Below, in pieces: positions 31,662 to 47,613 of a stretch of DNA of 64,000 nucleotides. The stretch comes from an archaeon GW2011_AR5. GTDB lineage: Archaea > Aenigmatarchaeota > Aenigmatarchaeia > GW2011-AR5. Below the pieces are notes generated by a model. That model made no database searches and was not told the origin of the DNA. It saw only the letters and a list, made by a program, of their open reading frames with translations. A program made the translations under genes and the position numbers. The stretch's first letter is position 1. Each line of letters opens with the position of its first letter. The stretch spans positions 256,815 through 320,814 of the forward strand of contig JWKQ01000002.1 of NCBI GenBank assembly GCA_000806115.1. The letters are read 5' to 3'.

Positions 31662-32018
31662 CTAAGGTGTAGATGCCGTGCCGCACCCGCATGTCCTTGC
31701 GCACGCCTCAGGCGTCATCGTGGTCTTGAAGTTCTCATTGCACGCGACTCCAAGGTTTTCTCCGGCAAAAGGAGCTGTCGATGTCGACGGCCTGTTGAAT
31801 GGATTGTAGCCCGATATTGTTATCGCGGTGACGCTCGCCGTGTCGCATCCGTATACGCTTCTGAGGGTGTTGCATCCGTTCGAATACGCCGCTGAAGTTG
31901 CAATAGTTCCTGTGCCCCCCACGAGCCAGCCGCTGAAGAATGCTGCAACCACGACGAGAACCAAAACAGCGATGGCCACGACTACTATCATGTTGATGGG
32001 CAGTTCAAGTCCTTTCAT
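31662..32018 (-). CDS. Short pilin-like protein with class-III (prepilin-type) signal, Cys-rich
   Basis: MKG|LELPINMIVVVAIAVLVLVVVAAFFSG: short basic leader ending in G, then an uninterrupted hydrophobic helix. The globular part has 6 Cys. Confidence 0.75.
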   Translation of the reverse strand: MKGLELPINMIVVVAIAVLVLVVVAAFFSGWLVGGTGTIATSAAYSNGCNTLRSVYGCDTASVTAITISGYNPFNRPSTSTAPFAGENLGVACNENFKTTMTPEACARTCGCGTASTP

Positions 32019-32328
32019 GGAAAAATCACTTATCTAATTATGGATTATAGTGGTATATATAGTTTTTTGAAATTTAGGGCGGAATTTTGTTTTCTCTTGA
32101 TTGGGAAATTCTTTATTTAGTTCGTGCGCGAAATAATATTGAAGACAAAGCATACAGGAACACCAGTTCTTTTCTCGCAGAAGCCTTAGAGCTTCTGGAG
32201 ACTCAGGTTGGACTTTGTTCAATCTCGAGTTGGAATACCTAGCTTTTTCTTCCAAGACGTTGTGAAGCACGCTTCACGACGCACATGAAGCTTCGCTTCA
32301 TGATGAGAGGATAGGTAAGGGATCGATA

Positions 32329-32700
32329 ATGAAGGGAGTATCACTTGCAATAGAAACGATAATATATCTGATACTCGCGGTCCTGGTTCTGATGGTGCTT
32401 ATAGGCTTCTTCCTTACGCAGGCGGGGCCGGCGCAGGACCAGTATGCGCTAGAAGCGAAGCGCAACAGCCTGTGCGGCGCTTACGTGACGAATGATTTCA
32501 GCTGCGCGGGAACCGGCGGCAATCCTGTGGCAGCCGCCAGCCCGTCTGTTGTCCAGAACATAGCAACAACCTGCGCAGAACTCAACCGAAGGTTTGGCTC
32601 CGCATACCGCTGCACCACAAGCTCAACCAGCGGTTCTGCGGCGCTCGACTGCATCAGGAGCTGCTGCATAACATGCCCGGTCAGAACTTCTTCACCTTAG
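32329..32700 (+). CDS. Short pilin-like protein with class-III signal, Cys-rich
   Basis: MKG|VSLAIETIIYLILAVLVLMVLIGFFL, with Glu at +6 as in archaeal KG|xxxxxE pilins. The globular part has 8 Cys. It is divergent from 31662..32018. Confidence 0.75.
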   Translation: MKGVSLAIETIIYLILAVLVLMVLIGFFLTQAGPAQDQYALEAKRNSLCGAYVTNDFSCAGTGGNPVAAASPSVVQNIATTCAELNRRFGSAYRCTTSSTSGSAALDCIRSCCITCPVRTSSP

Positions 32701-32703
32701 AAT

Positions 32704-34092
32704 TTAGCTTATTGTAAATCCTGTTGCAGTGCATTCGATCGTGCCGCCGCCCAGTATGTTGTTGCACATTTCCTGTTCTGCGCTTCCTCCGTCGTCCATG
32801 TTCCTGATTCTTTGCCCCGTGGACAGTTCATTGCCGGAAGGCATGTCTTGTATGTCTACGTTGCACGAGAACATAGCCCCGGCGCAGCATATCATGTCGC
32901 CCCCGCCGTTCCAGTTGAACTGCGCGAAACCGTCGGGAAGGAGGAAGTCGGGCGGCTGCCACAGGACGCAGTCAATGGCAGGCAGATAATCCTCGACCTT
33001 CATTTTGAGGCTTATGCGTTTTTTCTGGAATGTGTTGGCCGCAAGATCGTGGTAATAGTATCTTTCAGGCTCGGAATATGTGATTGTTGCATCGTAATGC
33101 AGCACCAGTCCCCAGCCGGGCGAGCGCGACGGCAATACCCCCGAGTTGTCCGCAGTGTTTGCGCTTAATGTCATCTCATTTATCGTAACATTGCCCCCGC
33201 CGTTTGCCGCGGCAACACCCGACAGGTAGTCCCGGAACGCGTCCTTGTACGCCTGCTGGCTTGCAGTAGGCGGGATGCCGAGCGCTCCCCGCGGCGCGTA
33301 GTGCGGCATTGCCGCATCGGGCGGCGGGCTTGTAGGACCTCCTTTGATAACATCTCCTGTCACAAGCAGCGCTTCCACCACGAGCCTTCCGGATGCCACC
33401 ATCTGCCTAAGCGAAGTGAACATGGTGTTGTTATTAGTCGTCTGGCGGCTTATTGCCCCCTCGCCGTAGCTTGCCGCGATTGTCTGCGTGAACGACTCCT
33501 CTATGCGGTCATCCAGCAGGTTGAATATCATGGTACTGGCTACGTTGTCCCCGTTTCTCGGAATGGTTATCGACACGCCGCCTGTTTGTTCGGGCCGTGG
33601 CATGGTCAGCTTAAGGAAATCGCGGGTCTGCAGCACGGTTTTGATGTAGTCAATGGCGTGATTGTCCCGGGGATAGCATATTTGAGGATTGAATCCGGCT
33701 GCATTGTATTTGCGGATTTGCGGGATTCTTCCCTCGCCGGCTATAATCTCGCCGGGCGCGCTCCTTTCGAAGGACGGGTTTGTTTGCATCCAGTAATCAG
33801 GATCCCTGATTGTTACGGGTCCGGAACTGTCGGGGCGCCCGCATCCTACGCTTTCGTCGCCTGTTATGAACGCCGCCTGCACAGTTGATATGAACCATGT
33901 TGTGCCGAGGGACTGGTTGAACAACGAGAAAGTCGACTTGAGGCGCATCAACGACAGCGACTCGAAGTTCAGCTTTGTCCTGCTCTCGATGTTGTTGTTT
34001 GCCATGTAGAGGTAAACGGCGAAGAAAGCCGTGAATATTGCTATGATAAGTATTGTGCCGACTGCCGTTCCTACTCCCTTGCTGCAATTCAT
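32704..34092 (-). CDS. Large pilin-like secreted protein (462 aa)
   Basis: MNCSKG|VGTAVGTILIIAIFTAFFAVYLYM is a prepilin-like N-terminus. This is the last gene of a 5-gene overlapping block (ATGA overlap with the upstream gene). Confidence 0.8.
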   Translation of the reverse strand: MNCSKGVGTAVGTILIIAIFTAFFAVYLYMANNNIESRTKLNFESLSLMRLKSTFSLFNQSLGTTWFISTVQAAFITGDESVGCGRPDSSGPVTIRDPDYWMQTNPSFERSAPGEIIAGEGRIPQIRKYNAAGFNPQICYPRDNHAIDYIKTVLQTRDFLKLTMPRPEQTGGVSITIPRNGDNVASTMIFNLLDDRIEESFTQTIAASYGEGAISRQTTNNNTMFTSLRQMVASGRLVVEALLVTGDVIKGGPTSPPPDAAMPHYAPRGALGIPPTASQQAYKDAFRDYLSGVAAANGGGNVTINEMTLSANTADNSGVLPSRSPGWGLVLHYDATITYSEPERYYYHDLAANTFQKKRISLKMKVEDYLPAIDCVLWQPPDFLLPDGFAQFNWNGGGDMICCAGAMFSCNVDIQDMPSGNELSTGQRIRNMDDGGSAEQEMCNNILGGGTIECTATGFTIS

Positions 34093-34940
34093 CGTGCAGT
34101 CACCTCCAGCGTTGCGACAGACTGCTTGTAAAGTAGAGGCACGATTGCCCTCACGGCTATTCCGGCGTCAACCTGATTGTCCGCCGTCATCGGCGCACAG
34201 CACGCGCGAGTATTGCCCCCGTTCAGCGGCGGACCGCATTCTGGCGGATTGCCCAGGTCAACCCGGCTCTCCTCGCATTCGTATTTCCATGAGGTGCCCC
34301 ATATCAGTTCATAGACGCGGGCGTAGAACGGCCTTTTCCCCTCGGAACACACGCCCTGTCCGCTGGGTCCGCAGCTGCGCACGTCCTTTGGATTCGGCAG
34401 GCTTTGGTATGCGGGTATGTCGTCCTTGCAGCAGTCTTTTTCAATCGGTGCGCCGCCTTCCGGCACATACAATATAGGGCACCGATAACTTCCGGAACTT
34501 ATTTGCACCCGTCCCACGCCGCAGGAGTCTGAACACCATCCTTCCAGATTGTCCCCGCATTTGCTCTCGGTGCTTTCCACTGACATGATTACGTTGTTGC
34601 CGTTGGCTATTGCTATCTCATATTCCCTGAGTTCGTATTTGTCAAGGTAGCTGGACAGGTATGACGGCAGCCCTGTGGTTTGCGCGTTCTGCAGCGATGT
34701 GACGGAAGTCTCGATTGACTGCTCGAAAACCGTCCTGTCGTCAAACTTCACGTGTGCGAGCACTTCCGCAATCATGAACGGCTTGTTCACCACGTGCACG
34801 AATTCTATCGAGTACGAAACAGGGTCGGCTGTGGAGAAGAACGGCAGTGTTATCTGAAGCCATATAAGCGTCCCGAGTATTATCATTGCAGCGACGAACA
34901 TTGTGAGTATGAGCGTCCAGAATGTATCTGATATGTTCAT
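34089..34940 (-). CDS. Cysteine-rich secreted/membrane-anchored protein (283 aa), pilus-locus component
   Basis: N-terminal hydrophobic helix FWTLILTMFVAAMIILGTLIWL. Cys clusters include CGDNLEGWCSDSCG, CPILYV..DCCKDD, CGPSGQGVCSEG and ECGPP..ACCAP. Confidence 0.8.
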   Translation of the reverse strand: MNISDTFWTLILTMFVAAMIILGTLIWLQITLPFFSTADPVSYSIEFVHVVNKPFMIAEVLAHVKFDDRTVFEQSIETSVTSLQNAQTTGLPSYLSSYLDKYELREYEIAIANGNNVIMSVESTESKCGDNLEGWCSDSCGVGRVQISSGSYRCPILYVPEGGAPIEKDCCKDDIPAYQSLPNPKDVRSCGPSGQGVCSEGKRPFYARVYELIWGTSWKYECEESRVDLGNPPECGPPLNGGNTRACCAPMTADNQVDAGIAVRAIVPLLYKQSVATLEVTAR

Positions 34941-35909
34941 TTATACATCCTCCATGCAAAGCAGGATGGTGCTCACTGTGTCGCTCCGTCCTGCAATCGC
35001 CGACGCGTCGGGGGGGCACGCGGAGCTTGTCTTCAGCGGGTACGCCGTTACCTGCCATTTCGAATTTCTTGCGCTGCTCAGGAGTCCCGCGAGTATATCG
35101 AGGTCTTCTACAGGTATATTCGGGAGGTATCTGCATTCTCCTGCGAGCGGGTCGTTCCCGTTATAGAGGCACACATGCGTCCCGGCGGTTCCGGAACGCC
35201 TGAAGGCCGTGGCACCAAAAGGCAGCTGGTTCGTGGCAAACTTCATGACAAATTTTTCTTTCGTATGGAACGCCTTGGCAGTGGCGCAGGAGATGCGTGT
35301 CAGGAATGCGTCGTATGCCGTTATTTCCATTGTAGCCGGCAGGGCTGTGTCCGACATCTCTATACCCACCGGAAATTTCGACGACGTTTCCACTATAGGG
35401 TTAGACATGAACATCGAAGTCGGCATGTAACCAAGGCGCCATTTATAACTGTCCTGCCACTCGCGGTCGGATGTTTTTTTGCACTCGCAGAAATCCGCGC
35501 CAAATACTTCCAGGTTGCAGTTGCAGTTTCCTGTTATGCCCATGTCAAGGGTTGTCAATCCGCAGACATTGCCGCAAAAGCCGCTGCAATCGTTGTCGCT
35601 GCCGCACACAGTCGGGCCGGTGCTCGCTTCTATGTCTATCTGATAGCCGAAGTCGCAGTTTTGTGCGTACTGCTCGATTTCCGCCTGCTCCGCAGCCGTC
35701 AGCTTTTCCGGTGAAAATACAGACTCGTCCGCCACGAGTCTTGTGTCGCTTGTCACCGTATCGGACAGTTCGAACACAAACCTTTCCATCGTGTTCTCTC
35801 TTACGTCGACCTTGAAAGAGAAAAACATCAGCATCATGAAGAATACAAAAAGTATGGCGGGTCCCATGCGAAGCAGGAACATGACAATTGCCATTACGTC
35901 GAACTTCAT
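34941..35909 (-). CDS. Cysteine-rich secreted/membrane-anchored protein (322 aa), pilus-locus component
   Basis: N-terminal hydrophobic segment AIVMFLLRMGPAILFVFFMMLMFF, and CGSDNDCSGFCGNVCG..GNCNCN..DFCECKK. It abuts the downstream gene with no gap. Confidence 0.8.
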   Translation of the reverse strand: MKFDVMAIVMFLLRMGPAILFVFFMMLMFFSFKVDVRENTMERFVFELSDTVTSDTRLVADESVFSPEKLTAAEQAEIEQYAQNCDFGYQIDIEASTGPTVCGSDNDCSGFCGNVCGLTTLDMGITGNCNCNLEVFGADFCECKKTSDREWQDSYKWRLGYMPTSMFMSNPIVETSSKFPVGIEMSDTALPATMEITAYDAFLTRISCATAKAFHTKEKFVMKFATNQLPFGATAFRRSGTAGTHVCLYNGNDPLAGECRYLPNIPVEDLDILAGLLSSARNSKWQVTAYPLKTSSACPPDASAIAGRSDTVSTILLCMEDV

Positions 35910-35917
35910 TCTTTCAC

Positions 35918-36319
35918 CTAGATGGATGATATCTCAACCGCGCCGCCGCGCTTGCGTATCTCAAGCAGGCGGTTCGCCCTGCAGGCAAACTCCCCGTTTG
36001 TGCCCGCGTTGATAATTGTCGGGGTTTTTATCCCGCTCATCGTGTAAGATATGTTCGTGCCGGCGACTGGAGTGATGGACATATGTATGAGCCCGTTTGT
36101 GATGAGCACCCTGCAGTTCGCATTGGGCATGTTGAACCTGTAGGTTGTGCCGTCAGGCGAACTCTGCACGATGTTTATGACGCTCGCCAGTCGTTGCGAC
36201 TGCAGCTGCGCGGAGTTCTGCACAGCCTCACCGATGGCAACCTGAAGCGGATTCACGGCGAATACGATGAACACAAGCGTCAGGAAAGTGGTGACGAATA
36301 TCCATTCGAGCGGTTCCAT
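35918..36319 (-). CDS. Pilin-like protein (133 aa) lacking a leader peptide
   Basis: MEPLEWIFVTTFLTLVFIVFAV: Glu at position 5 followed by a hydrophobic helix, like a mature type IV pilin N-terminus. TATA CCTATATAATAG lies about 35 nt upstream. Confidence 0.7.
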   Translation of the reverse strand: MEPLEWIFVTTFLTLVFIVFAVNPLQVAIGEAVQNSAQLQSQRLASVINIVQSSPDGTTYRFNMPNANCRVLITNGLIHMSITPVAGTNISYTMSGIKTPTIINAGTNGEFACRANRLLEIRKRGGAVEISSI

Positions 36320-36416
36320 ATCAATCTAATTAGAATTGTCAACGCTTCTATTATATAGGTTTTTGACTCTGTGAATCCGAAACCAAGCATACGAAGACCA
36401 AGCGCTCGTCAGTTCA

Positions 36417-38300
36417 TTACCCAGGCCATCCCCAAGAAAGGCGGCGTTCGAAGAACTCCTTCCAGCTTTCGAGGTCTCCCTGCGGATAGTATTTCAGCAC
36501 CACAGCGTCCCTGGATGCGTCGCCGCTTATGTACGCCGTGTTCTCGTTTATCGGCGATAACCCGAACGCCCTTGCTATTCCCTGTGTATCAGACAACCAG
36601 TCATCCCTGTAGGGGTCGAAAGTCCAGCAAAACCCGTCAGGCTTGTCTTCCACAGTGATGCGCATGCATTGGCCTCCGTTAAAGCCTGTGAGTGGAATAG
36701 CAGAAGTATCCTGTATATCGGTGCCTATTTTTTCTAGGCATGTAAAATGAGTACCGACTTCATGTAGCTTACCGTCCCCGCCATATTGATATATTGGGTA
36801 GTTGACTGCATTTTCACATTCCATCTGATCGCATGGCACTTTTTCAATTTTCATCTGTTCTATTGAACAGTCGCTTGCCAAGTTGAAGTCCTGAACCTTG
36901 TATGAGAGAAACACGCCGCCAAGGAATTCCCCTATCTTTTCAGAAGCGTATCCAACGCCGAATATGGTGCACGTCTTGCAGAATCTCCACGATCTGCCAA
37001 GAACTTTCCAGCTTTTTCCGAGGACTTTGGATGATAGTTTCAATATGCCCCTTCCGAACCAGCTTAAAGCTCCTGTCAGTGTGAAAGCGGAGCCGGAGCC
37101 TGCAACGCCGACGACCTCGCCGACTACCAGTCCGGATCCGGTTGCTGCCGGTACGGCTGTGAATGTCACACCTTCAGCCACGTAAAGCCCCGCTGTAGTT
37201 GCAATCGGCGTGGCGGTTGGAATAGCGCTCAGTGCAGTACCGGAAGCAACGGCGGCTCCTGACGGAAGAATCAGAGCCGCCCCGACAGCCAGTACAGCCA
37301 CTCCAAGAACGCCTTCAAAAATATACCTTCTTTCATCACGCGCGTCGTATTTCATCTCGATGTATTTTATGTCGCTGCACTGCCTCAACGGATATTTGTA
37401 CACGCCCGTTCGCGTCTTCAGGCAGAGAGAATTATCACCGCACGGCGCATATTTTATTGCGCTCTTCTCGAAGCTCGTCAGTCCCTTGTAGTTGTTGAAA
37501 ATGAACGCGTTGTCGCCTTCCGATGCAACAGGGTTTTCCGAATCGGGGTTCACCAGATCCCTCCATTCGCCGAACTTGCTTAACGCTGCGAGAGTGCCGC
37601 CGGGTCCCGTGTCAACCGGACCCGCACCCCGTGAGCCGCCGCTCCCTCCGTAAGCGCTGTTGGGACCGTAGTAGAAATCGCTTCTCTTGCTTCCTATAAC
37701 CACGTTGTTGACTATAACGCCCTCGAGCTTCTTCGAGGTGAGCTCGACATCTTCATCGCCTACCACGCGCGTATTCCACAGCTGCTCGATGCTGTCGGAA
37801 TATGTTTTCACGTCAGCCGGAAGTCTGTTATCGTATCCTGCAGGAAGATGTGTGATGAGACGGTTCTCCATTCCCTGGTAAATCTCCCAGCCTGTTGCGT
37901 CGCCTGCAGGGAATGATTCATAGTAAAGGACAAAGTTCGGATCGCCGTTGGTTCTTATCAGCCATATGGGCATGACGGATATCAGGCTGGTGAATTTTGG
38001 CGTGTTCTGCGGCAGCTGAAAGTTGTTAACAGTCACCGGACTTCCTGTGAAGCATGCCTCGTCCATGGATGCGCGCAGCTTCTCGACGTTGGCGAATGCA
38101 ATCTGGTCATAAGGGTCGATGGTGGACATTGCTATGGACACAAGCAGCACAACACCGAGAAGCAGGAAGAGAAGGCTCATCATGGTGTACATTATCTCGG
38201 ATATCGACGTGTCACCCTTGCCGATCTTTTTCTTTTCAAAGAAAAGTCGAGAAAGAAAATAGTGATTCCTAGGCTTCTGTTTCCCATTGTTTTTTTTCAT
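36417..38300 (-). CDS. Large pilin-like protein (627 aa) with long basic leader and internal Gly/Ala/Val-rich hydrophobic region
   Basis: MKKNNGKQKPRNHYFLSRLFFEKKKIGKG|DTSISEIMYTMMSLLFLLLGVVLLV. The middle region is VLGVAVLAVGAALILPSGAAVASGTALSAIPTATPIATTAGLYVAEGV...GSGLVVGEVVGVAGSGSAF. The C-terminal domain has 8 Cys. Confidence 0.8.
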   Translation of the reverse strand: MKKNNGKQKPRNHYFLSRLFFEKKKIGKGDTSISEIMYTMMSLLFLLLGVVLLVSIAMSTIDPYDQIAFANVEKLRASMDEACFTGSPVTVNNFQLPQNTPKFTSLISVMPIWLIRTNGDPNFVLYYESFPAGDATGWEIYQGMENRLITHLPAGYDNRLPADVKTYSDSIEQLWNTRVVGDEDVELTSKKLEGVIVNNVVIGSKRSDFYYGPNSAYGGSGGSRGAGPVDTGPGGTLAALSKFGEWRDLVNPDSENPVASEGDNAFIFNNYKGLTSFEKSAIKYAPCGDNSLCLKTRTGVYKYPLRQCSDIKYIEMKYDARDERRYIFEGVLGVAVLAVGAALILPSGAAVASGTALSAIPTATPIATTAGLYVAEGVTFTAVPAATGSGLVVGEVVGVAGSGSAFTLTGALSWFGRGILKLSSKVLGKSWKVLGRSWRFCKTCTIFGVGYASEKIGEFLGGVFLSYKVQDFNLASDCSIEQMKIEKVPCDQMECENAVNYPIYQYGGDGKLHEVGTHFTCLEKIGTDIQDTSAIPLTGFNGGQCMRITVEDKPDGFCWTFDPYRDDWLSDTQGIARAFGLSPINENTAYISGDASRDAVVLKYYPQGDLESWKEFFERRLSWGWPG

Positions 38301-38305
38301 ATTTC

Positions 38306-38352
38306 ATCACGCGAACGCAAGTGAGCCACCCTTTATAATATTTTTCTTTCCC
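38306..38352 (-). promoter_or_regulatory. Promoter/initiator module copy B (upstream of the 627-aa gene)
   Basis: Minus strand reads GGGAAAGAAAAATATTATAAAGGGTGGCTCACTTGCGTTCGCGTGATGAAAT-ATG. It aligns with copies A and C. Confidence 0.5.
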
Positions 38353-38358
38353 ATTGCA

Positions 38359-38431
38359 AGCATTTCGTTCGAAATGCTGCACAGCAAGAGCTTTGCTCTT
38401 GCTCGTGAGGGCTTTCTTTTTTAAAAGAAAG
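38359..38431 (-). other. Three consecutive perfect hairpins after the mini-ORFs
   Basis: AGCATTTCG-tt-CGAAATGCT at 38359-38378. AGCAAGAGC-ttt-GCTCTTGCT at 38383-38403. CTTTCTTTT-tt-AAAAGAAAG at 38412-38431. Confidence 0.55.
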
Positions 38432-38434
38432 GGC

Positions 38435-38554
38435 TCAACGGAACCATTTCAGCACAGGATCAATATTCGGCACGACGCCTGCAAGCATAGATATCACCAC
38501 GGCAAAAACCAGGAGAGTAAGGACTATCGCCACAACGACGTATTCTATTCTCAT
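38435..38554 (-). CDS. 39-aa hydrophobic mini-protein, Flp-pilin-like N-terminus without leader
   Basis: Hand translation gives MRIEYVVVAIVLTLLVFAVVISMLAGVVPNIDPVLKWFR. Its ATG lies 1 nt after the stop of the preceding mini-ORF (TAAaATG). Confidence 0.5.
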   Translation of the reverse strand: MRIEYVVVAIVLTLLVFAVVISMLAGVVPNIDPVLKWFR

Positions 38555-38555
38555 T

Positions 38556-38690
38556 TTATCTCAGCACTCCGAGCAGAAGGTCTATGTTATTCTGTATTCC
38601 GCCGTTAAAATGTATGTAGATAAGCAGGCTTATTCCCAAGCCCAGAAGGCCTATCATGATGAACACCACTTCGGTTATTGTCAGTTCCAT
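38556..38690 (-). CDS. 44-aa hydrophobic mini-protein
   Basis: Hand translation gives MELTITEVVFIMIGLLGLGISLLIYIHFNGGIQNNIDLLLGVLR. GGAGAAG lies 9 nt upstream of the ATG. Confidence 0.55.
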   Translation of the reverse strand: MELTITEVVFIMIGLLGLGISLLIYIHFNGGIQNNIDLLLGVLR

Positions 38691-38715
38691 TTTCAAAATC
38701 TTCTCCTATTTCAGT

Positions 38716-39627
38716 CTATGCACACCCCGTAATAGTGGGAGTACAGCCGAGGTTTCTTGCGGCTTCGCACTGCCCGCACGCGCCCCTGCCGAACTTGCTG
38801 CACTCAGTAAACTGTTCGCATACCAAGCAGGAGTTTGCCCATGGCCAGTACCAAGGCCCGCCCCAGTAGCAGCTTGCAGTTGATGTGCAGTCGCTTTCAG
38901 CGGCATGCCTTCTGCAGGTGTCAATTCCACATTCCGCGTCCCTGTCTACCGGCACGTCGAACGATGAAAGATAAGCGTCCGGGTGGCTCTCGAGCATCTG
39001 CCTCAGAGTGGAGCTGTCGATGTCGTCCGTCAATCCGGGTTTGTCCAGCCATGTTGTAAAATGGAATACCTCCCTGTCCCGCAGACTTCCAATCTGGCGC
39101 ATGTCGAATTTCAGCTTCAGGTCTTGCGGACAAATGAATTCGCCGCTCGGTGCGGCACATGATATTATTTCCTGTGTGTTTCCGTTCGTATCGCTGTAAC
39201 TTCCCAGTATGAGTTTGCTCTGCGTGCCGGAGATGCCCATGTAGTCCATTATTACGACGAAGTCAAGGCGGTCACTTTGGGAGCCGGGATACGCCCTGTA
39301 GAAGAATTTTAAGCCGTCAAGTATTACCAGCTGCGCATTAGGCGTGCAGTCCAGTTTTGTGAACTTTTCCAGCCCGCCTTCGCCGGGATTGTCGTTGGTG
39401 ATGTAGAGCTTCCCAGGCTCAAATACCTGCCCGATCTGGTTGAATATCTTCCAGGGCGTTACGCCCGCAACTATCGCAATGCCTATCGCAATAACGAGTA
39501 CCATGACTATTATGTAGAACCATGCGCCCATCGTTATCTGGAAGCCCATAGATTTATTGTGTCCGGCTGAAATAAAAAGAAAAATAGCTCTGTAGAAAAC
39601 CTGTGAGAAAAGCAGCAGGAGCATCAC
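38716..39627 (-). CDS. Secreted/anchored protein with very Cys-rich C-terminus (303 aa as drawn)
   Basis: TM FYIIVMVLVIAIGIAIVAG. The C-terminus is CGIDTCRRHAAESDCTSTASCYWGGPWYWPWANSCLVCEQFTECSKFGRGACGQCEAARNLGCTPTITGC. The first 7 codons coincide with an inverted-repeat arm, so the true start may be MGFQ (39549) or MGAW (39531). Confidence 0.75.
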   Translation of the reverse strand: MMLLLLFSQVFYRAIFLFISAGHNKSMGFQITMGAWFYIIVMVLVIAIGIAIVAGVTPWKIFNQIGQVFEPGKLYITNDNPGEGGLEKFTKLDCTPNAQLVILDGLKFFYRAYPGSQSDRLDFVVIMDYMGISGTQSKLILGSYSDTNGNTQEIISCAAPSGEFICPQDLKLKFDMRQIGSLRDREVFHFTTWLDKPGLTDDIDSSTLRQMLESHPDAYLSSFDVPVDRDAECGIDTCRRHAAESDCTSTASCYWGGPWYWPWANSCLVCEQFTECSKFGRGACGQCEAARNLGCTPTITGCA

Positions 39628-39754
39628 CGCATTGAATTTTGTTCAATGCGTGCAGGTGGAACTTGTTCCACCTTGCATTGTGTACCCACAATGCTGCTAG
39701 TAACTAGAGGGTATCGTGCATTCACGATACCCTCCCTGCTGCTTTTCCTTGAGC
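39600..39754. other. Inverted-repeat-flanked cassette of four perfect hairpins (MITE-like or structured-RNA element)
   Basis: Hairpins lie at 39629-39649, 39654-39673, 39675-39694 and 39707-39734 (the last has a 12-bp stem). The flanks share CCTGCTGCTTTTC in inverted orientation (39609-39621 vs 39734-39746). Confidence 0.5.
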
Positions 39755-39776
39755 ATTTCTACAGAGCAAGAAAAAT

Positions 39777-40751
39777 TTACGCGAAGCAGTTCTTGTCAGG
39801 CCTGTCTATGCAGCCCGCATTGAGTTCGAATTTGCCGCCGAGCCTGTCCTCGCGGCATAATCCAAGCAGCACATTGAAGTCGCTCGATTGGCGGGTGCAT
39901 TCGTTGTCTTTCCAGAAGCTCAGGAGAACCGTCTCTCCCACGTTCTCCCAAGGCTCGCCGCAGAAGCTGCCTCCGAGGGTGCTGCACCCGTAATCAATTT
40001 CTGCATTCACGGCGTTTGCCGAACAGTCGGGCTCCGCATTCAGCATTATTGTGGCGGTTCCTCCGCACATATCTATGATTTGCTTCCATTCGCTCTCCGT
40101 GCTTCCTGGCGTGCCGTTAAGGCGGCTGCTGGTTTTTGTTATGCAGGGACCTCTCAGGGTGAACGTTGCCTTGCAGTCGTACTGGTTCACGGGATTAAAA
40201 TCAACGGCGTAATCGGCGTTGAAGTAATCGTCGACGTTTACTGCGGCGATTATTGCGCTCCTGCCGCTCCTGACAAGGACAGGCATCCTGTAACTGAACC
40301 TGTCGCTGTAGAATGCGTTGTCATATGTTTGTATCGGCATTATTTCGCTTATTATGTCTGCCTTTATGTTGGGTTCTATGATTTCATCCTCGACGCCTAT
40401 CGTGAAGCTGTCGCTGTCGCCTGTCGGGCTGCTGAAGGTCGCCCTGATACTTTGTCCCTTGAAGCTTATTATTGCGATGATATTCACGGGCGCCGTCCGT
40501 TTTCCAGTGACAGTTATGCGCGGCGCCGTTCTTATCTCGTATAAATAGTCGCCAACCCTTGAGCGGGGCGTGACATCAGCCTGTATCGGAGAATTGCTTA
40601 CGCCCGCAAATGCCAGCACAAGCGGCTGCGAGAGGTTTTCCTGTATGTTCTGCGGCAGTTTTGTCCCGATAAATCTTTCGTTGGCATACAGGACTATCGA
40701 GAACGCTATTATACCGAAAATTATGTACGCGATTATGTCGTGCTCTTCCAT
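39777..40751 (-). CDS. Secreted/anchored pilus-locus protein (about 324 aa)
   Basis: N-terminal anchor IIAYIIFGIIAFSIVLYA, a large beta-rich ectodomain and C-terminal Cys pairs. The ATG at 40751 shares 1 nt with the upstream stop (TGATG), and GGTGA lies 4 nt upstream. The track start is a GTG at 40763. Confidence 0.8.
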   Translation of the reverse strand: MEEHDIIAYIIFGIIAFSIVLYANERFIGTKLPQNIQENLSQPLVLAFAGVSNSPIQADVTPRSRVGDYLYEIRTAPRITVTGKRTAPVNIIAIISFKGQSIRATFSSPTGDSDSFTIGVEDEIIEPNIKADIISEIMPIQTYDNAFYSDRFSYRMPVLVRSGRSAIIAAVNVDDYFNADYAVDFNPVNQYDCKATFTLRGPCITKTSSRLNGTPGSTESEWKQIIDMCGGTATIMLNAEPDCSANAVNAEIDYGCSTLGGSFCGEPWENVGETVLLSFWKDNECTRQSSDFNVLLGLCREDRLGGKFELNAGCIDRPDKNCFA

Positions 40752-41143
40752 CAGCTCACCCACGGAAGCGAGCTTATTATGGAATCAAATACGCCGTAGA
40801 AGAAACTGCTGCTGCTCGGTCCCGCTTCGCCGCCGAGGCTTGCAAGTATCATGAAGAGCACGATGGCAACTACAAGGAAAAATACGATTGTTGCCAAAAG
40901 CGTGGTGGTAATCACTATGCCGCGTGAATTATGCTTTTTGGACCCCTTAGTCTTGCTTTTTTTTCTTATCAGCGGCTCGAACAGCGCGAGTCCCGCAGCC
41001 CCGCTGCTTATCTGTTCTATGTTCTGCGCGGTGGTTGTTGAGACATCGCTCTCGACGGTATACCAGTATGCGATGGCTATTCCAAAAACCATCAGTATTG
41101 CGATGATTATAGTCATCAAGTCAACGGGCAGCATGGCTTTCAA
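40751..41143 (-). CDS. Two-TM membrane protein (130 aa), pilus-locus component
   Basis: MKAMLPVDLMTIIIAILMVFGIAIAYWY..., a basic loop KKSKTKGSKKHNSRG, then a second TM. It has an ATGA overlap with the upstream gene. Confidence 0.7.
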   Translation of the reverse strand: MKAMLPVDLMTIIIAILMVFGIAIAYWYTVESDVSTTTAQNIEQISSGAAGLALFEPLIRKKSKTKGSKKHNSRGIVITTTLLATIVFFLVVAIVLFMILASLGGEAGPSSSSFFYGVFDSIISSLPWVS

Positions 41144-41352
41144 GTTCCCGCACCTCTTTCAAGCTTTGCCGGCGTTTCGAATGAAATTGCGGTGCCCGCT
41201 GGTGTATATGCGGACGTGTATACGAGTTCCACGTCGTCATTAACTGCTTCCTGCGCGTTTTTCTGCACCATCCACAGCAGCCCGACGGCAAGCGCCATGA
41301 GAAGCAACCCCATCGCCGTCCACAGCAGCCATTTTGACATTCCCTTTGACAT
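41140..41352 (-). CDS. Small pilin-like protein (70 aa)
   Basis: MSKG|MSKWLLWTAMGLLLMALAVGLLWMV. TATA CAACTATAAATCC lies about 25 nt upstream of the ATG. Confidence 0.65.
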   Translation of the reverse strand: MSKGMSKWLLWTAMGLLLMALAVGLLWMVQKNAQEAVNDDVELVYTSAYTPAGTAISFETPAKLERGAGT

Positions 41353-41389
41353 GATTACTATTGGTTGTATTTTGGATTTATAGTTGCCT

Positions 41390-43372
41390 TTACCCTCTCA
41401 CAAGGCTGCTTGTTATCAGCGGCTCAAACATCACAAGCGTGACAAGCATGCATACTGTGAAGACCACGAAACCGACAATCAGCGATGTGCCAGTGATGTT
41501 CTGCCTGCCTATGGGATCCTCTCCGGACTCAATCGAATTTATGAACATGGCAAGTATGAAGGCAGTTTCAATCAGGTAAACTCCGACAATAAGTATGAAC
41601 TCGAACGGCGTAATCTTTACGTTGCCCAGCGAGGTTAGGAAAGGCACACTTACGCTGCCCAGGTTGCTCGTCTGTTCTGATATCTGCCTCAGTATCTTGA
41701 TGATTATCACAGCCAGCGTGACAACAATGCCCGATATGAGCGGAGAGAGAAAGTAAGACTGGAATTTTAGTGATGAGAGGGTGTCATTGAGCTGCTCTTT
41801 CACGTCTTCCTGGGTGTCGTGCAGCCCTTTCAGGTAGCGCGAGACGGAAAGCATCGCAACCGACGCGGTTCTTACGCCTTTTTTTGTCGATTCCACCACG
41901 GTTCTCATGATGGACTTGATGAGCTTGGAGGGATAGAATCTTATTGCCCCGTACTCCTTGTCGAAAAATGCCTGTCCGAACGTGAAGCCCAGCATCTTCA
42001 TGTTCTTGAGCGCCCTGCCAAACAAGTCCTTTATCTTCAGGTTTTGTATCCTTTCCATCGAGTGTTCCAGAGAAAGCTCTACAGGCACGCCTCCTGATAT
42101 CTGGTTTCCAAGCTGGAAAAGAGCCTCAGCAAATTCGCCTTCTATTTCCCTGGTTTTGCGGCGGATGGCGAGCCGCTGTTTTGACAGCATGATGTAGTAG
42201 ACCCCGAAGCCGAAGGAGATGCCCATCAGGATTACGATTGCGGGAAATATACCTTCGAAATCCGTGGAAGCGAAATACTCATTCACCGTCATAAAAGCCC
42301 CGAGGGCGATTATCATCACCCCTACAAGCAGCCCGACATGCCAAGCCTTGTAGAATTTTTTTCCCATTGCGAATTTGCCGGGCGGCGGAACGTCGGGATT
42401 CTCGGTAATATCTATCTTGCTGAAGGTGGCGGGCCTGGTCTCTAGTATTCCTGATATCACGAAATACAGCACGAGGGGAAGTATTATGTCATATCCGACG
42501 AAAAGCACCTCGGACGACACGCCGAGGAATGCCGCGAGTATGGGGAAAAGCACGAGTCCCATGACAGGGAGCACTATTCCGAGCGCGTGCACAACCATCA
42601 CCGGCATCTTGAGGTCCTGGTTGAAGTGCTTCGCCTGTTCCCTGCTTCCTTCGAGCACGATGTCAACCGCCTCGTCCAGCAGCACGATACGCTTGTCCCC
42701 GACCTGCTTCAGCGACGTTATCATCAATTCAACCGCCTCGACGAACGGCCTGTTCTTCGCCCAGCGGCTCGTGAAATCAACCAGCGCCTCCTGCATTGTC
42801 AGGTAATTTCCGATTTCCACGTCCCAAAGCAGTTTTTTCATCTCGTAGCCCATCGAGCCGCCGAGATTTTCCGCGGCGAATTTCACCGCAGCCTCGAGGT
42901 TAGGCACGTTTCTCATGTACATCGCTATGTAGAGAACAAGCGTGACTATTTCCGAGCCCGCGTCCGATTCGTATTTGCGCCGCAGACGCTTCGGGTAGGT
43001 GTGCACGTAAAAAGTGAAGAAGAGGGAAAGCATCAGCAGCATTAATCCGTAGCCGAAGGAAATCCCGGGAAGCTTCAAAGCGGTGAGAGCCATCAGGATT
43101 ATGGTCGGGATGACGGTTGCGAGAAGGAAAAATATTGTTACGGAAGTCGTCCCGCCGGGCGTCACTTTCAGGTGCGCGAACTCAATGGTTTCCTGTATCT
43201 TCGCGCGCGACTTTTTGTCAGGCTCGATGTGAATTATTCTCTCTGAAAAGCGGCACGCCTTCTCGTAGAGCGACTTGGGCATTGAGGCGAAGGCTTCTTC
43301 TTCCTGGTAAAGCCGGTATTCGCGCGATATGAGGTTGCGTATCTGTTCTTCCCGCTTTCTCTTCGAAGGCAT
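41390..43372 (-). CDS. Polytopic type IV pilus/archaellum platform protein (T2SS-F / FlaJ / TadC-like)
   Basis: 660 aa with two repeats of cytoplasmic helical domain plus TM triplets. Its position next to the secretion ATPase fits a platform protein. Assigned by architecture, not by a specific motif. Confidence 0.8.
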   Translation of the reverse strand: MPSKRKREEQIRNLISREYRLYQEEEAFASMPKSLYEKACRFSERIIHIEPDKKSRAKIQETIEFAHLKVTPGGTTSVTIFFLLATVIPTIILMALTALKLPGISFGYGLMLLMLSLFFTFYVHTYPKRLRRKYESDAGSEIVTLVLYIAMYMRNVPNLEAAVKFAAENLGGSMGYEMKKLLWDVEIGNYLTMQEALVDFTSRWAKNRPFVEAVELMITSLKQVGDKRIVLLDEAVDIVLEGSREQAKHFNQDLKMPVMVVHALGIVLPVMGLVLFPILAAFLGVSSEVLFVGYDIILPLVLYFVISGILETRPATFSKIDITENPDVPPPGKFAMGKKFYKAWHVGLLVGVMIIALGAFMTVNEYFASTDFEGIFPAIVILMGISFGFGVYYIMLSKQRLAIRRKTREIEGEFAEALFQLGNQISGGVPVELSLEHSMERIQNLKIKDLFGRALKNMKMLGFTFGQAFFDKEYGAIRFYPSKLIKSIMRTVVESTKKGVRTASVAMLSVSRYLKGLHDTQEDVKEQLNDTLSSLKFQSYFLSPLISGIVVTLAVIIIKILRQISEQTSNLGSVSVPFLTSLGNVKITPFEFILIVGVYLIETAFILAMFINSIESGEDPIGRQNITGTSLIVGFVVFTVCMLVTLVMFEPLITSSLVRG

Positions 43373-43443
43373 CGTATATTACTTGGCTGCCGGGTTAAAA
43401 ATAGATTCATAAGAGAAAATAGGAAAAAATAGTCCGGAAACAG

Positions 43444-43590
43444 CTATCGTTGTATTCTGGACTCTATTTCGTCAAGACGCTCGTTGAGTTCCCTGAATTT
43501 TTTCTCTATAAGCTCAGTCAGGCGCTCATGATGCGCGTGGACATGATGCTCGTGCAACGGACTATCGTGATGCTCATGTGGTAACGGCAT
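43444..43590 (-). CDS. 48-aa histidine-rich peptide with coiled-coil tail
   Basis: MPLPHEHHDSPLHEHHVHAHHERLTELIEKKFRELNERLDEIESRIQR. A strong SD GGAGGTGA lies 6 nt upstream of the ATG. Only the distal part of track ORF 43444..43746 is used. Confidence 0.6.
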   Translation of the reverse strand: MPLPHEHHDSPLHEHHVHAHHERLTELIEKKFRELNERLDEIESRIQR

Positions 43591-43603
43591 GTTTTTCACC
43601 TCC

Positions 43604-43795
43604 TCAGATAGAACTGTAAGGCGTTCTCGCCCTTGTAGCCGCATGAACGGAATCCCAGTTGTAAAGCTTTCTTTCCACTTCCTCCGGCGTTCCCTCGAAG
43701 CAGTTCCTGTACAGCTGCGCATAAGCTTCGTTCGTTCTCCGCGCATTCTCGCGTCTTTCCCTCATTTTCCTCCCCATATACTCTAAGATTTTCAT
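43604..43795 (-). CDS. Hypothetical basic 63-aa protein
   Basis: MKILEYMGRKMRERRENARRTNEAYAQLYRNCFEGTPEEVERKLYNWD... The track start at 43825 sits inside the TATA-like TATTATAA, so the ATG at 43795 is preferred. Confidence 0.45.
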   Translation of the reverse strand: MKILEYMGRKMRERRENARRTNEAYAQLYRNCFEGTPEEVERKLYNWDSVHAATRARTPYSSI

Positions 43796-43911
43796 TTTCT
43801 TCAACTCCAAAGTTTCGATTTTCATATTATAATAGAAACAGAAACTACTTAAAGATTTCGAGTATTCTATTAAACCCGAAATATAGACTTTAATAGTAAA
43901 GCGGAAAGAAT

Positions 43912-44295
43912 ATGATAATGCCTCCTTTATTTGACGAAATAATGCACAGGGCGCTTTCCAACGACGTGCGCCGCGAGATTCTTCTCAGCCTCGAGAAGAG
44001 AGACAAGTACCTGACAGAGATAGCCGAGGAGATAAAGAAAAAGCCCCAGACGATAGATTTTCACCTGAACCTTCTCGAAGAAATAGGGCTTGTTAAAGGC
44101 GAATGGCGCGAAGGGAAAAAATACTACTCACTGAAAGAAAAAAGAATACTCGACTTCCTGAAGAAAAGAAGGGCCATACCGGAGGAATTCAGGCCGAAGC
44201 CGCCGCATGAGATAGTGCTTGACATGTGGGAAGACATGAAAACGAGGCTGAACAGGATGGAGAAAAAGCTCGACAAATTAGGGGGCAAAAAATAA
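43912..44295 (+). CDS. ArsR/SmtB-family winged-helix regulator
   Basis: ALSNDVRREILLSLEKRDKYLTEIAEEIKKKPQTIDFHLNLLEEIGLVKGEWREGKKYYSL is the canonical ArsR HTH plus wing. Its stop abuts the stop of the convergent ATPase gene. Confidence 0.85.
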   Translation: MIMPPLFDEIMHRALSNDVRREILLSLEKRDKYLTEIAEEIKKKPQTIDFHLNLLEEIGLVKGEWREGKKYYSLKEKRILDFLKKRRAIPEEFRPKPPHEIVLDMWEDMKTRLNRMEKKLDKLGGKK

Positions 44296-46518
44296 TCAGT
44301 AGCTCTTCCGAAGCCACTGAAGCCATCTGTCGTATATGAGCGTGCTGTCCAATGCGCCTAATTCTTCTTTCACTTCGCTGCTTATGATATGGAAATGGGA
44401 ATTCGACGCTATTATGTTGTTCGCTTCGAGCAAGTCCAGACGGTTGTTGACGTTCGCGTAATCGACAATCGTCTGCATAATCTTGCCGCGCAGCTTTATG
44501 TTGTTCCACACGGCGTCCCAGTTGCCCTTCCACTCGCGCACGCGCTGGGCTATGTCGTTCAGCACAGCCGACTCTCCCATGAGCAGTGTCTTGCTTGGCT
44601 TTAGCACATCGTCCTTCGCCGAATAGTCAAGAAGGTTGACGAACCCGCCTTCTTCAGCCGGATCATTCTTCCAGTGCTTGCGGACCTCCGTCAGCTCGAC
44701 GCATCTTCTGAAAGATTTCAGACCGTCCGGCGATTTCAGCATGTTCGCAATGAGTATCATGTCAGTCGCCTTGAAGCTCGTGGGCGGCACGCCAAGGTCG
44801 TTCACAACCCTGTCGAACACGCCATAGGCAGAGTCGCCGTGGATTGTTCCCATGACTACGTTGGCTAATGCGCCGATTCGCATGGCTTCGTACAGCGCGA
44901 GCGCTTCCCTGCTTCTCACTTCGCCGATGACAAGAGCGGAATCGCCCAGGCGCAGCGCGGTTCTCAGCGCCTCTTCGGCGGGCAGTTCGGTGTCAACGTT
45001 GGTTATTACGCTTCGCGATTTCATGCTCTGGATATTATATCCAAGGTCGCGCAACTGATGGATCGGCAGTTCCAGTGTGTCTTCCACTGAAATAATTCTC
45101 AGCTTCGGCATTATCTGCACCATCAGCGCGCCGAGCATGGAACTCTTGCCTGATGATCTCGTGCCTGCTATAAGCATCGTCCTCGAGCCGTCAATCAGGA
45201 ACCACAGCAAGCCTGCGGAGAAAGGATCTAGCATCTTGTTGTTTATGAAAAGCGGGAGCGTCCATGGCTTGTCGCGATGCCGGCGGAAAGCGAAGCCGAG
45301 CCCGTCGGGCGACAGCGTTCGCGTAATCGCCGCGACTCTTGCCCGCCCCCCGGGCACTTCTATTTCAGTGTCAAGCACCGGGTTCGCCTCATCCAGCGGA
45401 CGCCCCGACTTTAGCCTGAATCTGGTCGCCCATGATTCCCCGTCTTCCCGGCTCGGCACGATGTTCGTTTCGCATTCCTGGTATATGCCGTGGAACAGGT
45501 AGACGGGTGACGTGCCGATCGGCGAGTTTATCTCGATGTCCTGCACGTTCTCGTCCTGGAGGATCAGGTCAAGTATTCCAAGACCGGCAGTGTATCTTGC
45601 AAGGATATTGGCAAGTTCTTCCAGACGCTTCTCCTGTATGTCGTGGTCCGCCGCCAGGTCACGCAGCATGTCTAAGCCGATTCTGAAAAGATTTTCACGT
45701 ATCCTTTCCGGCTCCTCGAGTTCGCTCTCTCTCGGTTCGTGCCTGCCAAGGTATCGCCGCGCCGTGTCGAGCATGTTGTATTCGATTTCATTGAGCCTGA
45801 ACTCGGGAGGGATGATGTGATAAAGCCGCCTCACCTGTCCCGGTATTGCATAGATTTCTATCTCAGTTTCCTCAACATTGTACCTTTCAAGCAGTTCGGC
45901 GTTCGCCGGCGGCAGCGATATGTATCGCGTGTAAATGAAATTGGGCCTGATAGTCGGGTGGAATATGCGCCTGTAGAGCGACCTGTCCTTGTGTTCGGTG
46001 ATGTTCGGCTTGGCCAGTTGAATGAGGCGGCAGTTGTCGAGCACAGCCGCTATCGGAAGCAGGGAATTGTTCAGGTAGTGGTTGTAGCACTGCTGCTTCA
46101 GTCCGGTTTCCCTCTCGGATTTTACTTTTATTCTCCTGATTTCCCGCGTGAGCGACCTGTAAGCTTCTATGGGGTCAAAACGGAGGTCGTTGAGAAGCCG
46201 CTGGAGAAAACGGTACCTTTCCTGCGAGTCGTCTTCGCAGCCGGCGATGACAACGTTCTTCAAAGAAATGAGCCTGTCCTTCATCAGGCGCTCGATTGCA
46301 AGCGCGATTTCCAGCAGCATCTTCGACTCTGTGAAGTCATATTCATACTCCCGCACGCCGGCGAAGACGATACGCACGACCTTCTTCAGTTCCATCAGTT
46401 TGTCGATGGTAGTTGCCATGCATGCGCTGTAGTCCTCGATGGAGTCGCCGTACAGCCCTCCGACGCAGTTGATGCGCATTTTTTGCGTCTCCTCGTCGTA
46501 GTCGTATTCGTACACCAT
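44296..46518 (-). CDS. Type IV pilus/secretion ATPase (VirB11/FlaI/PilB-TadA superfamily) with a long N-terminal extension
   Basis: Walker A IAGTRSSGKSSMLGAL, Walker B/Asp box ALVIGEVRSREA and His box VMGTIHGDSAYGV. At 740 aa it is about 200 aa longer than typical FlaI. Confidence 0.92.
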   Translation of the reverse strand: MVYEYDYDEETQKMRINCVGGLYGDSIEDYSACMATTIDKLMELKKVVRIVFAGVREYEYDFTESKMLLEIALAIERLMKDRLISLKNVVIAGCEDDSQERYRFLQRLLNDLRFDPIEAYRSLTREIRRIKVKSERETGLKQQCYNHYLNNSLLPIAAVLDNCRLIQLAKPNITEHKDRSLYRRIFHPTIRPNFIYTRYISLPPANAELLERYNVEETEIEIYAIPGQVRRLYHIIPPEFRLNEIEYNMLDTARRYLGRHEPRESELEEPERIRENLFRIGLDMLRDLAADHDIQEKRLEELANILARYTAGLGILDLILQDENVQDIEINSPIGTSPVYLFHGIYQECETNIVPSREDGESWATRFRLKSGRPLDEANPVLDTEIEVPGGRARVAAITRTLSPDGLGFAFRRHRDKPWTLPLFINNKMLDPFSAGLLWFLIDGSRTMLIAGTRSSGKSSMLGALMVQIMPKLRIISVEDTLELPIHQLRDLGYNIQSMKSRSVITNVDTELPAEEALRTALRLGDSALVIGEVRSREALALYEAMRIGALANVVMGTIHGDSAYGVFDRVVNDLGVPPTSFKATDMILIANMLKSPDGLKSFRRCVELTEVRKHWKNDPAEEGGFVNLLDYSAKDDVLKPSKTLLMGESAVLNDIAQRVREWKGNWDAVWNNIKLRGKIMQTIVDYANVNNRLDLLEANNIIASNSHFHIISSEVKEELGALDSTLIYDRWLQWLRKSY

Positions 46519-47566: not shown

Positions 47567-47613
47567 AAAGCGTTCCGAGGTATAGTATACCGATTCTTTT
47601 CTTGGAACGCTTT
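47567..47613. terminator. Bidirectional hairpin between convergent genes
   Basis: AAAGCGTTCC-(27)-GGAACGCTTT, with inner GGTATA-g-TATACC. On the minus strand it is followed by TTTG. It overlaps the stop codon of 47612..48247. Confidence 0.45.

Follow-up and report, generated by a model that had tools for sequence, protein, structure and literature searches.

A conserved type IV filament-like locus of Aenigmatarchaeota with cysteine-rich accessory proteins, one of which carries murein hydrolase domains in most relatives

An Aenigmatarchaeota locus with a type IV filament motor

A stretch of 64,000 nt from the archaeon GW2011_AR5 (DPANN, Aenigmatarchaeota; JWKQ01000002.1:256,815-320,814), hereafter the window, contains genes for a secretion ATPase and a platform protein next to a series of accessory open reading frames (ORFs), several of them encoding large, cysteine-rich proteins, that match no named family. 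In ENA, this contig is scaffold_591 of ERZ28564302. What machine does this locus encode, and are its accessory proteins parts of it? We consider it likely, judging from sequence and gene order, that the locus specifies a type IV pilus (T4P)-like surface machine that is specific to Aenigmatarchaeota and is probably a host-contact pilus. Membership of the type IV filament systems follows from the presence of an ATPase together with a platform protein and class-III-type subunits in one conserved array. All positions below refer to the window. Proteins are named after their length in amino acids (aa), as in p462, cc127 and tm156, and likewise pilA118 and pilB123 (pilA and pilB for short), and L001-L027 denote contigs with related loci.

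An original prediction, made from the DNA letters of the window, had described a 740-aa secretion ATPase with three motifs. All three are present: Walker A (GTRSSGKSS, aa 452), the GEVRSREA box (aa 532) and the His box (TIHGDS, aa 558). Every other ORF named there was also found in its place. The N-terminal extension of the ATPase, put at about 300 aa, measures about 290 aa against the Pfam core, yet no more than about 180 aa when A. fulgidus GspE or FlaI is the reference; the alignments to GspE and FlaI entries of the PDB begin at query residues 296 and 233. Among solved structures, A. fulgidus GspE is the nearest (2OAP, E-value 3e-30), followed by S. acidocaldarius FlaI (3e-19) and CpaF (1e-14). 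The predicted 660-aa T2SSF/FlaJ-like polytopic protein holds up as well, as the product of the single platform gene of the locus. Its own T2SSF match lies under the gathering score, and six of seven orthologues match this family (best E-value 1.7e-8). A sequence search of the PDB with the platform protein returned no result.

The top NCBIfam model for the ATPase is FlaI (1e-37), which, together with a faint FlaC_arch match of the neighbouring protein cc127 (0.002), might suggest a divergent archaellum that serves motility. However, the FlaI match reaches 130 bits against a cutoff of 550 bits, FlaI is more distant from the ATPase than A. fulgidus GspE is, and the coiled-coil matches are compositional. 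As the original prediction had stated, neither an archaellin nor FlaF, FlaG or FlaH was detected among the Pfam-scanned window ORFs, which comprised the locus and its neighbours, small polytopic proteins and surface proteins; the unscanned polytopic ORFs read as glycosyltransferases. We therefore find an archaellum scarcely credible.

The interval between the ATPase and platform genes (43373-44295) is a variable slot, occupied here by an ArsR-type regulator gene and an uncertain small ORF. In relatives, the slot holds a small MKGISPLIA-type ORF (L006) or a DUF6190 gene (L019), or is empty (L016); the MKGISPLIA-type small pilin of L006 has no Pfam match. An SNase gene directly follows the platform gene in L020. 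ATPase orthologues carry LAGLIDADG-type inteins at two distinct conserved sites, one after GEVR (aa 535/536), with a clean in-frame 512-aa insert ending in HN/T, and the other after VED (aa 480). The intein-bearing copies are found at L007:3837-5372, at L012:about 11440-12950 and in L016, where the gene was called as 1296 aa. The window ATPase is intein-free.

Gene order and a five-gene block are conserved in relatives

Read from 46518 to 31662, the locus consists of the ATPase, ArsR and platform genes, p70, p130, p328, p303, a 46-aa ORF, a 39-aa ORF, p627, p133, p322, p283, p462, pilB123, pilA118 and a convergent FEN1 gene. The ATPase, platform and most accessory genes lie on the minus strand, and ArsR and pilB123 on the plus strand. 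The tight packing that had been described was borne out, with neighbouring genes that abut or overlap by 4 bp or 13 bp.

Related genomes repeat this arrangement: gene order is kept in at least nine Aenigmatarchaeota contigs, and the closest named metagenome-assembled genomes (MAGs) with the ATPase are Candidatus Aenigmatarchaeota. Aquifer metagenomes also contain the ATPase gene. The order is the same in L006, L016, L017, L019 and L020 and rearranged in L021, L022, L023, L025 and L027, and L026 is a distant relative. The ATPase of L006 shares 76% identity with that of the window, against only 23-40% for the accessory proteins, as expected of exposed subunits. All or most of the five-gene block p627-p133-p322-p283-p462 stays together in all longer loci, and the short contigs L023 and L024 contain the end of the block only. 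Downstream of the block lie pilB, an Alba gene and pilA, usually beside FEN1. Alba parts pilB and pilA in most relatives (L016, L020, L021 and L026 were compared); the window and L019 have an inverted pilB and no Alba gene there.

An invertible switch at pilB was considered and rejected, as the inverted-repeat search gave only short matches that correspond to the 3' ends of pilA and pilB, which resemble each other. AT-rich TATA-like boxes upstream of p133, p627 and p70 were noted by visual inspection only. A scan for sigma-70 promoters and terminators yielded counts close to the shuffle expectation, the bacterial consensus being uninformative for an archaeon.

Short class-III pilins and disulfide-rich subunits

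Prepilin-type sites were judged by a [KR][GA] motif, a hydrophobic helix and conservation across orthologues. The two short ORFs to which class-III-type leaders had been ascribed keep their site invariantly, in 7/7 pilA and 9/9 pilB orthologues, and the same is true of p462 (9/9). pilA is a weak paralogue of pilB (E-value 1e-3). Two tiny helix-only ORFs, which are absent from the original prediction and keep their place in relatives, could be the true fibre subunits.

The cysteine-rich domains predicted for the accessory proteins were confirmed, and they are locus-specific. We counted 6 cysteines in pilA, 8 in pilB, 8 in mature p462 (and one more in its leader), 12 in p283, 14 in p322, 2 in p133, 12 in p627, 14 in p303 and 10 in p328, which amounts to a share of 1.5-6.5% in these nine ectodomain proteins. 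By contrast, the cytoplasmic proteins of the locus are cysteine-poor, as are the surface layer (S-layer) protein (none in 907 aa) and a 2493-aa surface protein (6 cysteines) encoded elsewhere in the window. The counts are even, and in most orthologues they are identical or similar and again even (mostly 14-16 in p322). Evenness and conservation argue for extracellular ectodomains that are stabilised by structural disulfides, although metal binding by the dense clusters at the C-termini of p303 and p322 is conceivable.

Other, very cysteine-rich secreted proteins (22-44 cysteines) without a family match are encoded near ATPase homologues of other Aenigmatarchaeota, at L010:10170-12074, in L011 and L014, and at L006:3329-5707. 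The copies in L010, L011 and L014 have lipoprotein-like N-termini.

The accessory set could not be matched to a named archaeal pilus system in the original prediction, and the searches revealed no named family: Pfam matched none of the 11 accessory ORFs, NCBIfam none of the six that were scanned, and Foldseek gave no credible PDB fold match for AlphaFold models of the two largest proteins, p462 and p627, nor one in BFVD for p462. The best E-values were 0.027 (PDB) and 9e-4 (BFVD) for p462 and 3.6 (PDB) for p627, with template modelling scores of at most about 0.15. The p462 model (predicted local distance difference test, pLDDT, 78.8; predicted template modelling score, pTM, 0.71) has a helix at residues 7-79 followed by an alpha/beta domain. 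In p627, which is identical in sequence to QT00_C0002G0348, a helix at residues 32-85 likewise precedes an alpha/beta part (pLDDT 68, structured parts above 85); two confident domains are separated by a variable Gly/Ala/Thr-rich linker. The long N-terminal helices of both models count in favour of a T4P-like machine.

Most relatives of p462 carry murein hydrolases at a single loop

A homologue search with p462 returned many relatives of about 615 aa with a Peptidase_M23 domain, a hydrolase-carrier family that the original prediction did not contain. We searched a profile built from insertion-free members against 1.84 billion proteins. The resulting family comprises 125 representative clusters, nearly all of which start with M..[KR]G and a hydrophobic stretch, and the members with a source name are from Candidatus Aenigmarchaeota, on contigs with archaeal genes such as Alba, FEN1 and CarS. 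The window p462 aligns with the family from end to end and shares its leader, helix and alpha/beta scaffold. Eight cysteines are invariant in the family (C84, C139, C375, C402, C403, C410, C443 and C454).

Among the members that cover both scaffold ends, 45/57 (about 80%) carry an insert of 158-745 aa at one loop, and 11 have none. The hydrolase insert lies exactly between the strand LVLHYDATVTYSE and YYYH. Pfam identified M23 in 36 of 63 long members, SLT in 35, Amidase_2 in four, SLT_2 in three, and CHAP and Lysozyme_like in two each, besides single cases of Amidase_3, VanY, Glucosaminidase, NlpC/P60 and Peptidase_M15_4. The inserted M23 domain keeps its catalytic HxxxD and HxH motifs intact, and LytM is its closest relative of known structure. 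Two family representatives illustrate how cleanly the insert comes and goes: P0006, which lacks it, and P0008, which has an M23 domain, are 73% identical upstream and 58% identical downstream of a clean 172-aa difference. Its gain or loss is therefore recent. The distant L026 array consists of an ATPase, a platform protein, small and large ORFs, an 1181-aa p462 homologue with Glucosaminidase, SLT, M23 and CHAP domains, short ORFs at the place of the pilins, and Alba; it thus ties the hydrolase carrier to a type IV filament machine.

VirB1, BfpH and FlgJ cut the wall of the producer itself to let a machine through, and the present case resembles them in that a murein hydrolase is genetically linked to a filament or secretion machine. 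Aenigmatarchaeota have an S-layer and, to our knowledge, no murein, so the target of the hydrolase should be another cell. Since bacterial murein is the specific substrate of all cassettes in the relatives, and the producer is an S-layer-bearing cell, we expect the target to be a bacterium; in the relatives, the machine probably makes contact with bacterial walls and breaches them locally. More tentatively, the locus may encode a tip or priming complex whose pilin-like scaffold displays exchangeable hydrolase cassettes (M23, SLT, amidase, CHAP, glucosaminidase) and so acts as a contact-dependent opener of bacterial walls, with AR5 as a cassette-free variant. We regard this as a possibility rather than a probability. 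If it were true, many such DPANN archaea would have bacterial and not archaeal partners, and the AR5 variant would be adhesion-only or the result of a host switch.

A different use of such a pilus would be the uptake of DNA or nutrients, with a competence-like fibre that scavenges nucleic acids for a metabolically reduced cell. Many biosynthetic pathways are missing in DPANN archaea, and SNase genes lie within or close to the loci of L020 and L021. However, the murein-hydrolase cargo of the relatives points to walls and not to DNA, and the window scans revealed neither a ComEC/ComEA-like channel nor a DNA-binding pilin signature. We consider an uptake pilus highly unlikely.

Large extracellular lytic-transglycosylase proteins are known from Woese- and Pacearchaeota (PMC8204110; PMC9723730), as are archaeal peptidoglycan hydrolases in general (PMC12352652), and the secreted murein hydrolases of DPANN archaea have been read as tools against bacterial walls. 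Unlike these, the enzymes of the p462 family sit in a class-III scaffold within a type IV filament operon, and the window copy is enzyme-free. The words 'pili', 'pilus' and 'pilin' do not occur in PMC8204110 or PMC9723730, nor do 'pilin', 'pilus' and 'class III' in PMC12352652, and a literature search on Woesearchaeota transglycosylases with a pilin found no paper. One paper on Aenigmarchaeota goes no further than FlaG/I/J homologues and pili in thermal MAGs.

Only part of the accessory set is clearly pilin-like

A hydrophobic N-terminal helix opens all 11 accessory ORFs and both tiny ORFs, so in this respect the pilin-like N-termini predicted for the nine larger ORFs (70-627 aa) were confirmed. 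The cleavage sites are a different matter. Outside the invariant cases, the site is frequent in the orthologues of p283 (7/10), p130 (4/5) and p70 (2/2) and variable in those of p133, p627 and p303. In AR5, p283, p133 and p303 are without the MKG leader that their orthologues bear; p283 and p133 start exactly where the mature part of the MKG-bearing orthologues starts, with stop codons just upstream.

Several observations weigh against a T4P-like machine made of all these proteins. A [KR][GA] site is present in only six of the 11 window ORFs, namely pilA, pilB and, among the nine larger ORFs, p462, p627, p130 and p70. It was never found in orthologues of p322 (0/8) or p328 (0/5). None of the ORFs matched the Pfam pilin models Pilin_N and Class_IIIsignal, and, as had been predicted, no A24 prepilin peptidase (PibD/FlaK/EppA) was found among the Pfam-scanned window ORFs. 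The folds of p462 and p627 are unlike any solved pilin or minor pilin. In L021 and L025, the pilin block has no adjacent ATPase or platform gene, and in L022 it lies beside a different, 547-aa T2SSE ATPase, so the linkage between block and machine is not obligate. Finally, the window p462 belongs to the minority of the family with no insert and no enzyme domain, and the bacterial-wall reading is therefore not directly applicable to GW2011_AR5.

A 264-aa polytopic protein that adjoins related ATPases (L008-L014), examined as a candidate prepilin peptidase, proved to be DUF63, not a peptidase, and no GxGD peptidase motif was seen when the five-transmembrane (5-TM) paralogues described below were read by eye.

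Since the sites are variable or absent across orthologues and p283 and p133 are leaderless, the prepilin reading holds only in part: it is solid for some of the accessory proteins, and for the rest it is wrong or at any rate not needed. The original prediction had named ordinary signal anchors as its own alternative. That description fits p322 and p328, which look like plain signal anchors, but not pilA, pilB and p462 with their invariant sites. Its broader claim of a surface filament or adhesion machine stands as far as a type IV filament locus other than an archaellum is concerned, the adhesive role being what we infer from it.

The same observations can be taken further. Only pilA and pilB, perhaps with the tiny ORFs, would then form the filament, and the large cysteine-rich proteins would make up a signal-anchored adhesion or contact complex that shares only location and regulation with it. 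The siteless p322 and p328 families, the siteless window copies of p283, p133 and p303, a second transmembrane segment in p130, a hydrophobic middle segment in p627, the location of the block away from the ATPase and platform genes in L021, L022 and L025 and the want of a pilin-like fold match for p462 and p627 would all agree with this. Yet [KR]G is kept in the orthologues of p462, p283, p130 and p70, for p462 across 125 clusters, and the block genes overlap or abut and follow the platform gene in complete arrays. Moreover, archaeal ATPase/TadC modules serve pilins that are encoded in trans (PMC4858521). Such an anchored complex seems to us rather unlikely, and we continue to favour a T4P-like machine in which the accessory proteins take part.

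Comparison with known systems and a proposed mechanism

In archaeal System 2 or clade 2 T4P (e.g., Haloferax PilB/PilC), the ATPase is extended at its N-terminus and the platform is encoded by one gene; pilin-like proteins with and without a class-III motif occur alongside small membrane proteins and large proteins of adhesin type (PMC4858521; bioRxiv 10.64898/2026.04.22.720090). The locus fits this layout, with one platform gene and roughly 180 additional N-terminal residues in its ATPase, and its nearest solved ATPase is A. fulgidus GspE, an affinity suggested by the PDB ranking. Pfam detected no match to PilA (Pilin_N/DUF1628, arCOG02416) and no recognisable arCOG02911-type all-beta minor pilin in the locus. 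In contrast to System 2, the accessory proteins are cysteine-rich orphans, and the neighbouring genes include conserved coiled-coil and 5-TM proteins. Other named archaeal pili do not fit. The Epd or System 1 pilus has two platform genes and EppA, whereas the locus has one platform gene and no peptidase, and the AapX Fe-S protein, UpsX and the AapA/B- or UpsA/B-type pilins of the Aap and Ups pili (Sulfolobales) have no counterpart among the domains of the locus ORFs. Another close description is that of DPANN 'dark matter' T4P islands, in which a FlaI-like ATPase and TadC lie beside unannotated signal-peptide proteins that were read as 'diverse pilins' (PMC6393860, Fig. 2A). The general picture is the same; the five-gene block, the cysteine pattern, the hydrolase-carrying scaffold and the gene-by-gene anatomy are not described there.

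In bacteria, priming and capping of the fibre are attributed to the GspH-I-J-K and FimU-PilVWX-PilY1 tip complexes. The five-gene block is like them in having four to five co-transcribed subunits of unequal size, each with an N-terminal helix, and an inserted domain in the largest. Unlike them, it has no sequence or fold similarity to these proteins, no conserved Glu5 and no secretin, and some members are siteless.

This likeness also invites a reading as a type II secretion-like pseudopilus, a piston in which a short periplasm-free stub would push the hydrolase or cysteine-rich proteins through the S-layer for secretion or display, in place of a long adhesive pilus. The GspH-I-J-K minor pseudopilin logic of the block and the fusion of an enzyme cargo to a class-III scaffold would suit it, as would the class-III signals on non-filament proteins in archaeal bindosome-type systems (bioRxiv 10.64898/2026.04.22.720090). 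Against a piston, every array ends in two short, highly conserved pilins whose promoters are separate, which is what abundant filament subunits would lead one to expect, and the locus encodes no free (non-anchored) secreted substrates. We judge a pseudopilus improbable.

Under the favoured T4P-like reading, a prepilin peptidase encoded elsewhere would trim the [KR]G leaders, and the ATPase and platform protein would extrude a filament composed mainly of pilA and pilB and possibly also of the tiny helix-only ORFs. By analogy with bacterial minor pilins (GspHIJK, PilVWX), the five-gene block may form a priming or tip complex, which would present its large cysteine-rich domains to the partner cell. 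In most relatives, the last subunit (p462 family) bears between one and four peptidoglycan-hydrolase domains, all at the same surface loop. AR5 lacks this cassette, and there the complex would be an adhesin only.

We know of no established partner or contact mechanism for most DPANN archaea. The locus provides a defined and conserved gene set for a surface machine of Aenigmatarchaeota, consisting of a motor, a platform, short pilins and five disulfide-rich subunits, and through its relatives, enzymes specific for bacterial murein become linked, in a testable way, to an archaeal type IV filament system. Should this link be functional, bacteria would be hosts or prey. The gain and loss of hydrolase cassettes at one loop also represents modular evolution of a pilin-like protein.

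The upstream module and other genes of the window

The positions of all features are listed in Table 1.

Table 1. Features of the locus and other genes of the window. In N-terminal sequences, a slash marks the candidate start of the mature part; cysteine counts are given in the text unless noted.
Feature	Position	Strand	Basis or remark
S-layer protein	4781-7504	+	S_layer_C 4e-24
2493-aa surface protein, class-III-like leader MNGFMKG/IIKTGVIFSAVFVAAIALF	8104-15585	+	Only Pfam match a short BNR_assoc_N stretch
Pentapeptide-repeat protein	26608-27300	-	
pilA118, short class-III pilin (MKG/LELPINMIVVV), candidate major subunit	31662..32018	-	Site conserved in orthologues
pilB123, short class-III pilin (MKG/VSLAIETIIYL)	32329..32700	+	Site conserved in orthologues; 8 Cys in 8/9 copies
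p462, class-III-type scaffold (SKG/VGTAVGTILII), insertion-free family member	32704..34092	-	Profile and alignment; AlphaFold
p283, Cys-rich ectoprotein, MKG leader lost here	34089..34940	-	Leader in most orthologues
p322, signal-anchored Cys-rich ectoprotein	34941..35909	-	No [KR][GA] site in orthologues
p133, small pilin-like, leaderless here (M/EPLEW)	35918..36319	-	MKG/ in L006 and L021
p627, opening the conserved five-gene block	36417..38300	-	26 homologue clusters, Pfam domain in none
Tiny single-helix ORF, 39 aa (MRIEYVVVAIV...), Flp/Epd-like 'helix-only' candidate	38435..38554	-	L016 orthologue MRVEYVIVGFV
Tiny single-helix ORF, 46 aa (MKMELTITEVVFIMIG...)	38556..38696	-	Equal-sized ORFs in the same position in L001, L016, L019, L020, L021
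p303, Cys-rich ectoprotein (12 Cys within the last 70 aa), likely start 39549 (MG/FQITMGAWFY)	38716..39627	-	Orthologues start MGKG/D or MKG/I
p328, signal-anchored Cys-rich ectoprotein, likely start 40751	39777..40763	-	No [KR][GA] site in orthologues
p130, two transmembrane segments, leader MKA/MLPVDL, no Cys	40751..41143	-	Site in most orthologues
p70, small class-III-type (MSKG/MSKWLLW...), no Cys	41140..41352	-	[KR]G site in both orthologues
Polytopic platform protein, TadC/FlaJ/PilC type, 660 aa	41390..43372	-	T2SSF 2.2e-4; 8 hydrophobic segments
ArsR/HTH_5 regulator, lineage-variable gene between ATPase and platform	43912..44295	+	HTH_5 4.6e-10, HTH_20 9e-10
Secretion ATPase, FlaI/GspE/PilB superfamily, 740 aa, N-terminally extended	44296..46518	-	Pfam T2SSE 7.8e-16
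cc127, cytoplasmic coiled-coil protein	46801..47184	+	Beside the ATPase in L006, L012, L015, L019, L020, L021
cc214, coiled coil with small N-terminal helical domain, cc127 paralogue	47612..48256	-	Sequence comparison
Small polytopic proteins tm156, tm166, tm153, tm214 and a methyltransferase-like ORF	48356..51225	-	No Pfam match
Pentapeptide-repeat protein	53798-54511	+	

The conserved module extends upstream beyond the ATPase to about 51225, over genes that the original prediction did not include. Both cc127 and cc214 adjoin the ATPase in L006, L012, L015, L019, L020 and L021. tm156 and tm166 are paralogous (3e-27) and form, together with tm153, a set of 5-TM paralogues. Homologues of these three lie by the ATPase module in L012, L020, L021 and L015 and in the Nanoarchaeota locus L013, where similarly sized ORFs also hold the position of the cc genes. 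The family libraries contained no match for any of the cc and tm proteins, and cc127 gave only spurious coiled-coil matches. The cc and 5-TM proteins are probably cytoplasmic and membrane accessory parts of the motor. In L021, the pilin block lies directly beside the cc genes, and the ATPase, the platform protein, p70, p130 and p328 are absent there, which represents a modular rearrangement.

Elsewhere in the window, the 2493-aa surface protein with its class-III-like leader may be a further substrate of the same peptidase or machine. Genes for pentapeptide-repeat proteins, of which the window has two, are also found near the locus in L016, L017 and L027.

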